Of a stretch of 17,566 bases of DNA, positions 6,001 to 15,000 are shown one piece after another. Position 1 is the first letter of the stretch. The number at the start of each line of letters is the position of its first letter. The stretch covers positions 1-17,566 of the IMG/VR virus record IMGVR_UViG_2671181056_000012. One strand, 5' to 3'. This DNA is from a virus. Lineage: Duplodnaviria > Heunggongvirae > Uroviricota > Caudoviricetes. A program made the position numbers.

Positions 6001-9000
6001 TCTACGGGTTCTTCGACAACACGGTTTAAGCTGTCTTTCATTGCAATGAGTTTATCCCATGACATTTTTGAAAGGACGTAGCGAGAAGCAGCATAGCTAT
6101 AAACCAGACAGTCGAGAGCCTCGTTTCGGGTACTACCTGGATTTTTCACCCAACGCACGCCAGTAGTAGTACGCTTGATGGATTCACTCAAAAGCTGATC
6201 GAGATAATCATCAGGAACGGTTTCTGATATTTCTAAGCCGATGTGAGGATTGTCTTTCAGGTTTCTAACCAGCATTTCACGAACAGCAGATTTCCCAACG
6301 TTAACACCCAACATAAGCAATTCATGACCACCTGTGCGGGTAGGTTTAACCGGAATCACTGGAGCATTACCGGATGAACTACCTTTGATCGCGTGTAGGT
6401 TCTTCCACTTGCCACAAATACGGTATCCGGCTTGAGTGAATCGACCGTTCGATGTATCAAGGAAGCTGGCGAGCATTGGCACACGTTCACCATTAACGTT
6501 ATAGAATTTGGTTTTCTTGAAGTTAACCAGACGATCCCAAACAGGTGATTCATATCGTTCACAGTTATGATCGTAAAAGCTGCGGTGATCCAGAATGTAA
6601 ACCTTATCTTTCGCTACACCTAAGATGGTAGATTCTGCGCGGTCCAATTGCTGGTCGATTCCTGAACACAAGAAAATCACGTCATCAGGGATATTCTCGA
6701 TAGAAACATCTGTTTTGAGTTGTTCCAGTTCATTTGCTTCTACTGCCGTGTCCTGATCGTCGTATACCTTGCCTAACACGGTGTTATAAAATGATTGTAA
6801 ATCAAAGGATTGCCACGCATGACTAAAATCAACCACACAAGCGCGGATCGTGCTGAAAGGTGAATACAGACGGCTAATCCAGAATCCTGCTACTTCACTT
6901 TCACGGGTTGCTCTCCACTCGCCTTGCGCTACTGCCCTGATTCGTTCCCCTTCTGTCCATGCGTTCTTACAATGGGGGCAAATATAACGAGCGGTATCAG
7001 GATCGGGTAAATTCTTACCATCGATGTTACGCCATTCAAACTGTACGTTTTCCCACTCGATCACCTGGTGTCTACCGCAATGAGGACACGGAACAAAAAA
7101 CATACGCATATCACTTGATAACCATTGCTGGTTAATGCTTCCGAGCTTACTGGTCGGGGTACTGGATACGACTAATCGACCTTCATCGCCAAAGGTAGTT
7201 AAACGGTTAGCAGCCAGCGCCACCGGATCACCTTCTTCTGAGGCTGTAGCAGCATCGATTTCGTCAAGCAATCCAACCTTTGCGGTCTTACCACGTAGGG
7301 TTGATGGACTGGTAAGCGATACCATGTACAGGAAGTGATTCGTTTTTAGCTGTAGCTGGTTATTGTTGTTAACCGCATTGCGATCATTCTTGTCTGTAAC
7401 CACGTCTTTTAATGCATCACATGCTTCGATGGACGGTCGGATCTTACCCGCGAGATATTGAGACATTTCTTTAGCGGTTGATTGTCCGATAATCATATTG
7501 CATGGATCGTTAGCCATCTGGTTAAACAGGATACCGTTTAGGATGGTAGTTTTTCCGATCTGCGCACTGGTCATCAGTACATACTTTTTCTTATTCTCAA
7601 GGAAAGGAGCATCAATCATGCCTTTCTGGAATGACAGCAATTTAACTTTATCCCCCGCTTGAGGACCATCTACCAGCACCATATTAGCTTCGCACCATTC
7701 AGAAGGAAGGAGCTTAGGCGGTGGAGTGATATATTTTGCGGCATTTTTAAGAATCTTTTTTAATTTTGCCTTATTTGAAATCAGTTTCATGTAATTACCC
7801 TCATTACGAAATATGAAGGTATTTATTAAATTGTTGATATTTTGATAAATATGGGTATTAATTAAAGGGGGTTGTATGCTAATTAATCAGCAACAAAGAG
7901 ATGAATTAGAATTAGCCTTGTCTTGTACCGATCATGAATATCGTTTGCCAGTTAAGCATAAGCATTTAAAAACCGACTACACTACATCTGGCTTTAGTCG
8001 TGAGGAAGCGAAAGAGATTTTAATAGAGTTTTACCGTGATAATGGCTATAGAGACGTTCACAACTTCTTTAAGAAGCATAGAACATCACATACAGAGTTC
8101 CAGAGAGTCCGAGATTGGTTTGATTTTGATATCAAGCGTTATTATCGAGTGGATGACGGTCCGATCTATCGGTTGCAGTGGACACCGATCCGAGAAGTGT
8201 TGAAACAGAAGAGATTGAATCACGCAATTACACGCTATCGTAACGAGGCTTTCAAGAAAGGCTATGGTGATACAAGGGAACTATTCGTTGAACTCGCTAA
8301 CGTGCGTTATAGCCACTATTACAACGATCCTAAAGGGTTCTTTGAAGTGCTTCGCAAGGTTGATATAAGTCGGGGTACATACTATTCACGGTTGAAGAAG
8401 TACGGGATTAAGGCAGAGTTCTTTATGAGTATTGACGATGGAGAACTTTTTCCGATAAAATGTAAGTCCTCTAAATAAAGGTGAACATTCACTTTAATTT
8501 GGAGAAATGACTATGACTACTAAAGCTACTCGCGGTCGTCCTTGCCGTTTTAACGCTGAACAGATGGCTGATATTGCCTACGCTTACTATACAGCGGATC
8601 GTGGTAAGGAAGCGAAAGAACAGATTCTTAGTGAACATGGGATCTCAATCGCCCAATTCTATAAGAATATGAAGAAGTTAGACATTAAATTCTATGTTCA
8701 GATCGGTGATGGTCAGATCGTAGAAGCAACAGGTTTTTGAGTTTTGATTCTCTTTGCCACTCTTCGGAGTGGCTTTTTTATATCCGCTCAAAAACTGAGC
8801 ACATCTATAGATGGCGCGAAAATTCGCGTGATGTAGATACAAAAAAGCCCCTGAAATTCAGGGGCAAAAATTATCACAGTCCGAAGTGTTCCAGTGATCC
8901 AACATTCTGGCGGAGACGTTCAGCCGCTTTGTTTTGAATCAGAATAGTGTTGTTCGGCTTAGGAAGATTCAGAGTTGCTTTTTGTTCTTCTTCCAGAATA

Positions 9001-12000: not shown

Positions 12001-15000
12001 AAATACAATCCCCATATAAATAATAGTGAGCGGTTAACGCTCTTTTTTAAGAAATCATTAATCCACATTGTAGGAGGATTCGAGATGGCACGACCTGTTA
12101 AGTTCACTCGCGAAATCATCTTAGAAATGGCTAAACGCTACTTTGAGTTAACGCCGGGTGTGAGAATTGAAGAGTGGTTTAAAAATGAGGGTATCGATAA
12201 ATCAACCTTTCATAAACTCTTAAAGAAGTATGACATTAAAGTAAAGATAACCGCAGAGGTTTACTGATACTTTGACTGAGAATTATATGATGGCTTTAAA
12301 AAAAGAAAAAGCCTCCCTTGTTGCAGCAAAGGAGGCTTGAAATGAACAATTAAAACTAACTTTCCACGGAGTATTTATAATGTTATTTTCCGCTAACTTT
12401 TTCACTAACGAAGTAACCAACGCTAAAGCAGTTATCAAATTTGGCACCGAAGCAAACAAGAAGATTCAGCCGAAAGTTGTTGCTCATGTTTCCTTTGCGC
12501 AGCAGAAATCCGCTTTCGCTGGCTTTAAAGCACATCGTGAAGCACTGATCGCGGCTGGCTTTGGTGTTGACGGTAAACTGCCTAACGGCATTCGTAAAGC
12601 AATCGACCGCGTTAAACCTGCTAAAGACGTTGCAGTAGACCACATCGTTACTTTTACCGTTAAGAACTCTTCTGAACTGTTCCACCTGGTTATTGCTGGT
12701 GATACTGCTATCGTTTCCGCTCCTAACATGGATTTTCAGGATACCGCTGATTGCCAGATCACCTTCGGTCGTCGTAAAGAAGTTACCGGAAAAGCTAAAC
12801 TGAACTTCACTAAATCCGGCAATCCTTACTTTGCTGTATTCTTTAACAGCCACGCTACCGAAAAAGAAGTTGTAGAACTGGTTGCTTATGAAGGTGAAGA
12901 GAAAGAACGTATTGAATCTTGCGAAGCATTTCTGGAACTGGAAGCACAGGTGAATGCTGTTTCTCCGGTTGTTGAAGATCGCTTTGCTGCACTGGAAGCA
13001 CAGATCGCAGAACTGAAAGCTGCACTGGAAGAAAAAGACCAGATTATCGAAGCACAGAAAGCTGAGATTGAAGAACTGAAAGCTAAAGAAGTTGCTCCGG
13101 TGGCAGTAGTTGAAAACGCGGCTGATGAGGCCGCAAATGATGAAGTAGAAGTGAAAATCGATGTGATGCGTGATCCGATGGCTGCACTGCAATTACTTCG
13201 TTCTTTTAAGGGCAAATCTCATTTTTCTAGTGATGTAGAAGATGAGGAAGAAGAACAGAAACGCAATGCTGCAATGCTTCATGATGAAATGTACGGTACT
13301 AACTTTTCTTACTGCCAATAAAAAAGGGACTCCGAAGAGTCCCTAGTAAGTTTAGGTTAGGTTTGCACAACAAAGATGAGGTTATAATGAACATAATGCT
13401 ACATTATTCTTTAAAGCCAGAAAAATAACCGCCCCGAAGGGGCGGGAGGATTAATACTCAATCTATACTTGTTATGTTTTTATGTTGTATAGTCACTGAC
13501 TATGAAAACACTGTACTGAATGTGTTTTATGGCTTTTAATCGGGAACTCTCTTTCGAAAATTCCCTGTTAAAACCACATAAGGAGAAATGGCAGATTACA
13601 ATATTATTTAGTCTGTTTGAAAACAAACGTTAAAAATTCGATTAAGCAATATACCCAGCATACAGTAAGCAGTAGATGCATAGAAATAGCCGGATGGAAG
13701 TTAAAAAGTGTCATACTAACTAGGCCAACAATATAAGAAATTCCCTCGACAATTAACGCGAGACTAGAAAATGCAACAAACGCACCTAAGAATAATTCAG
13801 CACGTTCTCTATTTTCGGTTCCGAGTTTATAAGCAGAAATAACAGCCAGAATAGTAATGATGACAGCATAGGTAATAAAAGTAGCCATAGTTTTATATCC
13901 TCTTAAAAGTTAAGCGGGGGATGTTCTCCCCCGTAGACGTTGACCCGTTCAACATCTTTCATACATTTATTTATAACGCGTTTTAAGACACATCAAATTC
14001 ATCGTCTTCTTCTGGTTCTTGTTCTTCCGGTTCATCCATTAATGGTAATTCTTCTTCCTCGTCTTCTCCCAAATCTGCATTTTCGAACAAGTCCCCTACT
14101 TCATTTAAACGACGCTCGATGATCTCCCTTAGCTTATTCTTCAATGTTTTCTGGTCAGTGGCAGATTCGAGAATTTCTAAAGCGTCGATTGTGGCGATCT
14201 GCAAAATAGTCTGCTTCACTTTTCCGCAATATTCCGCTAGTTGCTGTTCTACATACCCGACGGGAATCAGGAGATTCATTGCTTCCTGGTTCTCTCGTTC
14301 GGCTGCGTCCGCTAATGCTCTCTCGCGGCGTAACTTCTCTACGTCGATTTGTTCTTTGACAGTAGCCCCCTCTGTCAGGATAGTTGTCACCCCCATCGAA
14401 AATACTAATGACAAGATGGGAACAGATCGTGAAACGAATTTCACCAGAACGTAAATCGGCTGCACTGGCTAAATTACTACCGCCTTACAACATGACCGTC
14501 ACCGCAGTTGCGCAGATGGAAGGGATATCGGAAGCTACCCTTTATTACTGGCGTAACAAGGCGAAAGCAGAGGGAATACCGGTGCCGGGTGCAAACAAAA
14601 CTACAGACCAATGGTCAGCCGAAGCCCGGCTGGCTGTGATTATCGAAACAGCTACACTCAGCGAAACAGAACTCGCGCAATACTGCCGTAAAAAAGGGCT
14701 TTACCTGGAACAGATTAGTCAGTGGAAACAAGGCTTTTTGCAGGTGTCTTCGCCCACTGACAAAGCGGCGCTCAAACAAAGCCAGAAAGAAGTTAAACAA
14801 CTAAAACGCGAACTGCTTCGTAAGGAAAAGGCGCTGGCGGAGGCGGCAGCGATACTGGTGCTGCGAAAGCAGTTGCGGGATTTTTACGGGGAAACCGACG
14901 AGGACGACTGACGCCCGGAACAGAGCGGCAGGCACTTATCGGTTACGTGCGGGACGCGATGGCGTCAGGAGCTCGGCTGTCAATAGCGCTGACGGAAGCG

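Follow-up and report, generated by a model that had tools for sequence, protein, structure and literature searches.

Adjacency of the small (terS) and large (terL) terminase genes is among the most dependable landmarks for annotating tailed phages and for guessing the location of their cos or pac packaging sites. This study concerns a stretch of virus DNA in which the two genes are apart: the 17,566 nucleotides (nt) of IMG/VR virus record IMGVR_UViG_2671181056_000012 (Duplodnaviria; Heunggongvirae; Uroviricota; Caudoviricetes), referred to below as the window. A gpA-like terL and a Nu1-like terS lie here on the same strand, separated by a gene block at 7791-13982. The initial annotation had left two accounts of this block side by side, a large moron insertion into the packaging operon or the native layout of an undescribed phage group with cos/pac and origin functions between the terminase genes. 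The analysis favors the native layout, with an origin- or operator-like region inside the block and the best cos candidate outside it.

The large subunit gene occupies 5883-7790 on the minus strand and encodes both domains characteristic of the large subunit of lambda-type cos terminases, the ATPase (Pfam GpA_ATPase PF05876, 4.6e-56) and the endonuclease (GpA_nuclease PF20454, 2.6e-44), which bears out the start at 7790 and the gpA-like character first assigned to it. The end proposed for terS, on the same strand, also proved correct, with a stop codon at 13983. The single protein assigned to 13983-16169 had to be abandoned, as the interval is not one open reading frame (ORF) and contains two terS fragments split by an insertion sequence (IS) of the IS3 family. 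The C-terminal fragment (13983-14365, minus strand) comprises a coiled region and an acidic tail (...DDEFDVS) and is followed by a terminator detected by terminator scan at 13915-13933, whereas the N-terminal fragment (15983-16154, minus strand) encodes the Nu1-like winged helix-turn-helix (HTH) and has a GGAGG 8 nt ahead of the ATG at 16154. Deletion of 1,617 bp in silico yields a single terS ORF of 184 amino acids (aa), collinear with the intact orthologue.

The inserted element (14366-15979, plus strand, 1,614 bp) displays the attributes of its family, that is, two consecutive ORFs (orfA, 14384-14911, with HTH_Tnp_1 at 2.7e-15; orfB, 14947-15942, with rve at 2.2e-18 and rve_3), terminal inverted repeats (the ends read TGTCA(G/A)G.TAGTTG.CACCCCC) and a 3-bp target duplication (TAG). 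Copies that are 99.9% identical and annotated as IS3-family occur on many plasmids, and with a GC content of 0.55 against ~0.40 in its surroundings the element is the sole compositional island of the window. The junction between terS and the IS was not found among 5,426 complete E. coli genomes; the insertion is thus private to the source strain, a strain-specific knockout of a packaging gene. Because terS is cut by the element this prophage copy is probably unable to package, and the practical message for the window is that of a prophage probably dead in this respect.

The identity of terS is upheld by several lines of evidence. The intact orthologue matches phrog_57 ("terminase small subunit") over its full length (1.8e-16), and the best solved structures retrieved with a 16-member terS profile are the lambda-type TerS 6hn7_B (3.9e-4) and the gpNu1 DNA-binding domain 1j9i (2e-3). 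In a sister clade whose terL is 39-43% identical to that of the window, a terS of the same family (hidden Markov model [HMM] matches of 1e-22 to 1e-28) abuts or overlaps terL. Because orthologues sit directly at terL in that clade, the assignment of the 184-aa Nu1-like protein as the real TerS holds as judged from sequence, this positional argument being the strongest one. As terS is uncoupled from terL in the lineage, it is annotated as "hypothetical" almost everywhere.

The block between the two genes contains eight plausible genes rather than the ten or so first listed; their mixed orientation was described correctly, as were the Rha regulator, the HTH paralogs and a hub of repeats. The genes form four transcription units: p200-p77 (plus strand), p150-p110-Rha (minus), p60-p313 (plus) and p94 (minus). 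Terminators follow both terS and p94, and genes on the other strand intervene, so that terS and terL belong to separate transcription units. The divergent intergenic region between terL and p200 (7791-7875, 85 bp, from the sequence and the ORF list) is too short for a terS gene. The product of p200 (7876-8478) is a tandem pair (residues 40-97 and 133-191) of an HTH-like domain of ~55 aa, related to p60 and p77 in BLASTP (5e-5 to 2e-6); it is 89-99% conserved among close relatives and found no match in Pfam, PHROG, NCBIfam or PDB. It is followed by p77 (8507-8740), a one-domain paralog of p60 and p200, and by back-to-back terminator hairpins at 8756-8773 (plus) and 8847-8865 (minus). Since p60 and p77 are also similar to each other (E 2e-8, 35% identity), the block carries four copies of this domain, in p60, p77 and both halves of p200; family searches with it returned nothing beyond a weak HTH_Tnp_1 match (p60, 1.5e-3).

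The leftward operon is headed by p150 (10243-10695), which has an acidic C-terminus and matched neither a family nor a PDB entry; its alleles in relatives are 60-99% identical, and a CapR-like protein occupies its slot in Providencia. The following gene, p110 (9790-10122), encodes a small orphan protein that is absent in some relatives and gave no match in family searches. The operon ends with a Rha-family regulator (8874-9698), which scores 47.1 bits (3.6e-12) with PF09669 (Phage_pRha; cut-off 29.9) and matches PHROG anti-repressor/Rha families (1e-16 to 1e-17). It consists of a variable N-terminal DNA-binding domain, a short coiled coil and a C-terminal part that is constant across relatives and joined to at least six allelic types of N-domain. 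The rightward operon begins with p60 (12085-12267), a small HTH-like protein, and continues with p313 (12380-13321), which comprises an N-domain (residues 1 to ~175), a coiled coil (182-236), an acidic linker and a short conserved C-terminus. Downstream of terS, p94 (13604-13888, minus strand; terminator at 13429-13445) encodes a small hydrophobic (membrane) protein whose position is conserved even in Providencia (28% identity). PDB sequence searches with p150, p200 and Rha were empty and PADLOC detected no defence system among the block proteins. In the ~37-kb phage to which the window belongs, the only candidate control and replication functions are those encoded in the block, which is read here as an early/control region belonging to the phage itself.

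The divergent operons surround a non-coding hub of 1.39 kb (10696-12084). From left to right it contains a cluster of short G+C hairpins (~10790-11290), an inverted CAGGGGCAAAA box (11326-11336), an A+T-rich spacer of 45 bp and nine direct CAGGGGCAAAA boxes of 11 bp, mostly 21-22 bp apart (11381-11566), so that the full array of nine direct and one inverted copy spans 11326-11566. Relic boxes of a second type, TAGTGTAGGTTT, follow at 11571-11593. Tandem sigma-70 promoters on the plus strand (11606-11663; 12/12 and 11/12 matches to the consensus) feed p60-p313 through an untranslated leader of ~380 nt, which ends in an intrinsic terminator (GAGCGGTTAACGCTC followed by T6; 12028-12048) directly ahead of the ribosome-binding site of p60. 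Providencia and loci with a second type of leader, unrelated in sequence, likewise combine a promoter with a long leader and a terminator, and this suggests attenuation, antitermination or a leader-derived RNA. Within 10900-11232 there are six cGNAg hairpins (a GNA triloop closed by C-G on a stem of at least 4 bp), against an expectation of 0.05 from shuffles; the whole window has only eight, another site being at 16280-16292, and in relatives the hairpins persist with different stem sequences. In a leftward RNA some of the hairpins would take the form of C(UUCG)G tetraloops. Rfam gave no match on the hub at permissive thresholds and no DnaA boxes were found near the array. Two further candidates were dropped: a lone CAGGGGCAA box in the terminator beside Rha (8849-8876), considered as a remote p313 site, is also present in loci with array types B and C described below, and p60, considered as the reader of the promoter/leader type, has alleles which vary independently of the promoter types.

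The protein encoded in the p313 slot and the repeat array change together. Type A loci combine the p313 N-domain with the CAGGGGCAAAA array (16/16), type B loci a 333-aa protein with a different N-domain and ~8 copies of TAGTGTAGGTTT (11/11), and type C loci a third protein of 333-337 aa and ~20 copies of ACGGGGA (2/2). Array type thus matches the type of N-domain in all 29 loci, or 30/30 when Providencia is counted, where a slot protein with the second N-domain and another C-terminal cassette is paired with the second type of array. The alleles of p60, located between the array and the slot gene, and those of p150, Rha, terS and terL reassort freely with respect to array type. Because N-domain and array covary while the neighboring genes reassort, the p313 N-domain is likely to recognize the array. 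In more distant relatives (terL ~50% identical) a small HTH protein is also paired with an N-domain/coiled-coil protein, together with repeats of their own phased at 21 bp. An AF2 (AlphaFold2) model of p313, built from a 10-sequence alignment, contains an alpha/beta N-domain with pLDDT (predicted local distance difference test) values of 70-90 and a coiled coil of 55 residues. Homologue searches with p313 returned only copies that are 99-100% identical, and an exhaustive representative search just 12 relatives.

Some further observations concern the slot proteins and their boxes. Exchangeable N-domains are combined with at least two C-terminal cassettes (alignment A3; L005:2652-3653; L018:3669-4682), and several of the proteins end in -AA (YAYAA, LDFAA, RRAA, LKAA), resembling C-terminal ClpXP degradation tags. 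Type-B loci carry extra TAGTGTAGGTT boxes, inverted with respect to the main array, inside and just downstream of the gene for the 333-aa protein (L005 2429, 3437; L007 1292-2303; similar positions elsewhere), which recall the secondary sets of iterons or operators used for looping or handcuffing.

The conservation of the layout was examined in 74 loci retrieved by two IMG/VR scans with terL, the block genes being located by tblastn and terS by an HMM of the family alignment. All close relatives with a terL 55-100% identical, namely L001 and 35 loci (24 from IMG/VR compared along with L001, then 11 more), have the order terS, (p94), (p313-slot gene), p60, 1.2-1.4 kb of non-coding DNA, p150, (p110), Rha, p77, p200, terL, with alleles shuffled gene by gene. 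In the synteny comparison proposed initially, ~50 relatives in E. coli, Salmonella and Providencia thus have terS, block and terL in this succession, and the split is shared down to ~50% terL identity. In the ~50% clade terS lies 4.3-6.0 kb upstream on the same strand and a small HTH gene is found at the p60 position, while most block genes are no longer recognizably similar. The layout recurs in a Providencia prophage, where terS (9e-81 with the family HMM) is the last phage gene before the host alr gene. In the sister clade (terL 39-43%) the adjacent terS-terL pair is preceded by co-directional early genes, and in a clade at 29-34% terL identity weaker matches to the terS family are likewise adjacent to terL. 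Because all relatives in the split clade share the arrangement while the sister clade has the genes adjacent, the split is, by this comparison, a derived, old and clade-wide character, the normal state of a lineage with the two genes 4-7 kb apart. In one locus, L033, genes similar to p200 and p77 form one operon with p60 and a p313-like gene downstream of the repeat array, and the opposite operon passes through Rha directly into terL. The breakpoints in composition or codon usage that were to be looked for at 7800 and 13980 did not materialize: block genes have a GC content of 0.35-0.44 and a GC content at third codon positions (GC3) of 0.28-0.43, structural genes 0.38-0.45 and 0.27-0.42, and no compositional break occurs at either edge.

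The window (from 57/64 to 16415-17520) is 90-96% identical to dozens of E. coli chromosomes. In E. coli PSJ-22 (NZ_AP027634.1, about 1,178,047-1,214,895) the intact element is a ~37-kb prophage inside ycdX, with a large serine recombinase at one end and terS at the other. From the recombinase end its genes encode a GIY-YIG/CapR protein, a CapR protein and the UvsW-like helicase, an M15 endolysin, tail and head proteins, and continue through terL and the block to a 188-aa "hypothetical protein", the final gene before the host junction. The window would accordingly represent ~16 kb at the right-hand end of a ~37-kb prophage whose lineage is temperate and long-tailed. The terL allele of the window is carried by 56 of the 5,426 complete E. 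coli genomes (~1%) and the lineage is also present in Salmonella and Providencia. Compared with cultured phages and plasmids, the window gave no match apart from IS sequences, and a profile search of genome contigs with the terL alignment retrieved zero relatives. Literature searched for ycdX prophages, RefSeq protein accessions and non-adjacent terminase genes yielded no description of the group. Because no cultured phage in the collection exceeds 43% terL identity, an undescribed but fairly common group of Enterobacterales prophages is supported, as one of the two initial accounts had it. The closest entry in the phage collection is Escherichia phage DCP80 (PQ671644.1; L003, L004), with a terL 43% and a terS 35% identical. 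This 141-kb record is filed under Straboviridae (T4-like Gaprivervirus); its first ~26 kb, a siphophage-like relative running from terL to terS, is joined to T4-like genes (motA, ndd, rIIA), rIIA being present twice, and it is probably a chimeric assembly.

Upstream of terS there is a conserved leader of ~250 nt (16155-16407, minus strand) which contains an invariant hairpin segment (16274-16297) and the candidate cos, AGGTACT-N20-GGAGTTTTCGG (16355-16392). Conservation begins at a fixed point (16407) whatever adjoins it, be it host DNA, hicB cargo or an LprI-like gene. A cos-like motif occurs 130-250 nt upstream of terS in the split clade, the adjacent clade, Providencia and DCP80, and its ends resemble the flanks of lambda cosN, AGGTTAC-G-GGGCGGCGACCT-CGC-GGGTTTTCGC (read from NC_001416). 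The best cos candidate would thus lie upstream of terS, outside the block, and a cos between the terminase genes appears unlikely. Of the suggestion that cos/pac and origin functions sit between the two genes, the origin part finds a counterpart in the hub and the cos part does not. Should this placement of cos hold, what happened in evolution was that a cos-terS cassette moved with respect to the early region. In that case the maps of prophage and virion would be nearly collinear, the attachment site (att) being no more than a few hundred bp from cos.

Other explanations of the layout were weighed against this one. If the block were a large moron-like insertion of dispensable cargo between terS and terL genes that were adjacent in a recent ancestor, the adjacency in the sister clade, the optional or replaceable character of some genes (p110, p94, p313-slot alleles) and the strong promoters and terminator that p60-p313 has of its own would be accommodated. 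This is extremely improbable, since the block is present in every member of the split clade, down to ~50% terL identity and in three genera, no relative with an empty site was found in that clade, flanking repeats are absent, GC and GC3 stay inside the limits set by the structural genes, no alternative control region exists elsewhere in the 37-kb phage, and the leftward operon of L033 enters terL directly, like a native early-to-late arrangement. The moron account initially proposed thus finds no support, the block containing the phage's only candidate control and replication functions. The call of terS could also be at fault, the Nu1-like protein of 184-188 aa being an unrelated HTH regulator, as the initial annotation had allowed, or a recombination directionality factor by att, with the real terS elsewhere, for instance p200 or p77. 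The gene is indeed no more than a few hundred bp from where the prophage ends, has its own terminator and scores below threshold with Pfam Nu1, and the HTH-like p200 and p77 adjoin terL. The full-length PHROG match, the lambda-type TerS structures at the top of the PDB matches and the sister-clade orthologues, which extend over the beginning of terL, make this very improbable; besides, p200 and p77 are encoded on the other strand and in L033 form part of the p60-p313 operon. It may finally be argued that the hub is itself the packaging site, a cosB- or pac-like array for TerS binding, so that packaging starts inside the block. TerS typically binds at short, phased direct repeats such as those of the hub, and the hub does lie between terS and terL. 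The type of array, however, goes with the protein in the p313 slot rather than with the allele of terS: terS genes that are 83-100% identical are found with both types A and B, and of the two type-C loci one has a terS allele of 53% and the other an allele of 88%. As the motif resembling the cosN flanks is present upstream of terS in all clades, even those that lack the block, packaging from the hub is improbable.

Concerning the function of the hub, two readings compete. In one of them, a real possibility somewhat short of an even chance, array and p313 would constitute an iteron-type origin and its initiator, autoregulated from the adjacent promoters, with the hairpins as single-strand priming signals. 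This accords with the ~ten direct 11-bp boxes mostly 21-22 bp apart, the inverted box and A+T-rich spacer at one edge, the position of the array directly upstream of the promoter of the cognate protein's operon, the swapping of specificity as protein and site pairs, the extra boxes flanking the protein gene in type-B loci, the excess of cGNAg mini-hairpins and the lack of another origin candidate in the phage. It is weakened by a p313 without the fold or family of a known Rep-like initiator, an array region without DnaA boxes and, in a phage whose only helicase is UvsW-like, the failure to find a helicase loader. The other reading, rated almost as likely, regards p313 as an immunity repressor, the array as its operators, the three types as heteroimmune variants and p150-p110-Rha as the early lytic operon. 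The divergent operons do resemble a lysis-lysogeny switch, DNA-binding domains and sites are exchanged among near-identical phages as in immunity regions, and the near-consensus promoters of p60-p313 are those expected of a gene expressed in the lysogen; moreover, in L033 the opposite operon reaches terL by way of Rha, the Rha-type protein has its matches among anti-repressor families and no CI-like repressor is encoded elsewhere in the phage. Nevertheless, the array precedes the promoters of p313 itself, the nearest candidate for a leftward promoter is ~600 bp away from the array, an operator would not usually have ten to twenty direct repeats, and HTH_3 and S24 domains were not found. Under either reading the array-p313 pair is core phage machinery and not cargo.

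The explanation judged probable overall is that of a natively split packaging cassette in which the cos-terS unit lies at the prophage end, the early/control region occupies the space between, the p313 N-domain reads the array and terS is broken by an IS in this copy. According to this model, cos and the Nu1-like terS would form a stand-alone, terminator-bounded unit at the prophage end, by the cargo slot and att, and the gpA-like terL would head the structural operon 4-7 kb away. Between them the divergent operons, p60-p313 rightward and p150-p110-Rha leftward, would be arranged around the 1.4-kb hub, the pair of HTH-like proteins p200-p77 would point away from terL, and the N-terminal domain of p313 would bind the ~ten 11-bp boxes of the hub. 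TerS would be made separately from TerL and bind the leader between cos and its own gene; by analogy with Nu1 and gpA, TerS would recruit TerL in trans, with its conserved acidic C-terminal tail as the probable contact. What the genomes compared show directly is the identity of the genes, the IS, the shared layout, the terS-terL adjacency of the sister clade and the joint variation of array and protein, whereas the position of cos, the mode of action of TerS and the role of the hub are proposals built on them. Several points weigh against the model. Family searches across the phage gave no canonical repressor, replication initiator or helicase loader, so that the block is assigned as the control/replication region partly by elimination. 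The p313 N-domain matches no known fold and has no recognizable DNA-binding fold, and binding to the array is argued solely from covariation. With Pfam Phage_Nu1 (PF07471) terS scores 15 bits, the cut-off being 30. The relatives are mostly predicted proviruses; the lineage is known here from sequence, particle formation by this prophage is hypothetical and the cos ends are putative. The DCP80 record cannot confirm the layout in a virion genome because it looks chimeric.

The head-gene operon extends on the minus strand from 7790 down to ~850, with terL as its first gene. After terL come a 164-aa protein resembling head-tail joining proteins (phrog_5774), a portal of the lambda family (PF05136, 1.9e-66) and a protease-capsid fusion (1742-3748), recognized by its capsid and protease domains. 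The E/K-rich linker between these domains is encoded by imperfect internal direct repeats (2737-3192). Two alleles of terL with ~59% protein identity occur within backbones that are elsewhere 90-99% identical (L025, L027-L034, L044, L046, L052, L058, L059 versus 5883-7790), and terS is 88-96% identical whichever of the two accompanies it. A tRNA-Gln predicted by ARAGORN (997-1087, plus strand, 91 nt) lies within a coding ORF of 142 aa on the minus strand and was set aside as a probable false positive.

Both ends of the window have traces of other IS elements. Positions 1-64 are the end of an IS5-type element (inverted repeat GGAAGGTGCGAATAAG, reverse strand, 45-60, then CTAG), which truncates the gene to the left of the 142-aa ORF, and 17521-17566 is a further IS-like terminus matching many Shiga toxin (Stx)-phage records; three IS elements within 17.6 kb suggest an IS-rich, Shigella-like host. 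The cargo slot (16408-17400), between the terS leader and the prophage end, contains an ORF of 101 aa (16454-16759, plus strand), a HicB antitoxin (16823-17173, minus strand; Pfam, 5.6e-8) and an apparent frameshifted remnant of hicA (17198-17392, minus strand). In other relatives the slot has an LprI-like gene or AbiTii, or is empty.

The lineage implies that a lambda-type terminase can work with the genes of its subunits uncoupled and separately transcribed, and it provides a natural system for asking how the supply of TerS and TerL is coordinated without translational linkage. It also exposes an uncharacterized module of protein and repeat array with swappable specificity. Rather tentatively, the p60-p313 operon, the array and the cGNAg-hairpin cluster may be regarded as a previously unrecognized phage control/replication module, with a new N-terminal fold, a coiled coil, swappable C-terminal cassettes, 10-20 short repeats and at least three interchangeable specificities, distributed from Escherichia to Providencia; its location between cos-terS and terL would represent a new architecture for lambda-type cos phages.

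Among known systems, DCP80 also has the cos-like motif upstream of terS, which is placed just after the lysis genes and not beside terL, and a non-coding stretch rich in hairpins and repeats upstream of terL; being probably chimeric, the record does not reveal what separates these two genes. Iteron replicons (P1 oriR-repA-incA, pSC101, R6K) have direct repeats beside an A+T-rich stretch, upstream of the promoter of the cognate protein. As in these replicons, the repeats of the hub are phased at about two helical turns, and protein and repeats change together. The hub differs from them in its core of only 11 bp and its lack of DnaA boxes, no Rep-type winged-helix fold or family was found here, and p313 has a long coiled coil and exchangeable C-terminal cassettes. 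In lambdoid immunity mosaicism, cassettes of a DNA-binding protein and its sites are swapped between near-identical temperate phages; alternative cassettes of protein and sites are exchanged here as well, although CI/Cro-type HTH_3 or S24 domains are absent and long direct-repeat arrays take the place of palindromic operators.

The closest parallel for the terminase itself is lambda, which shares a terL with both gpA domains, a portal of the same family, a TerS with a Nu1-like N-terminal winged HTH and an acidic C-terminal tail, and the flank motif (AGGTTAC ... GGGTTTTCGC in lambda), located ~240 nt upstream of terS here and ~200 nt before nu1 in lambda. The TerS described here differs in scoring under the Pfam Phage_Nu1 cut-off, and the spacer between the cos flanks is 20-22 nt compared with 16 nt in lambda. 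While nu1 overlaps A within one late operon of lambda, and terS directly upstream of terL is the rule for systems of its type, here the two are separate units 6.2 kb apart with eight genes of mixed orientation, some on the opposite strand, between them, and all close relatives agree in this. Non-adjacent terminase genes do have a precedent, because in phages of the P2/186 type the small (M) and large (P) subunit genes are apart and separately transcribed. In P2 the scaffold and capsid genes separate M and P, within the late region; here, by contrast, a whole early/control region would lie between the subunit genes, and the terminase is of the lambda gpA/Nu1 type.

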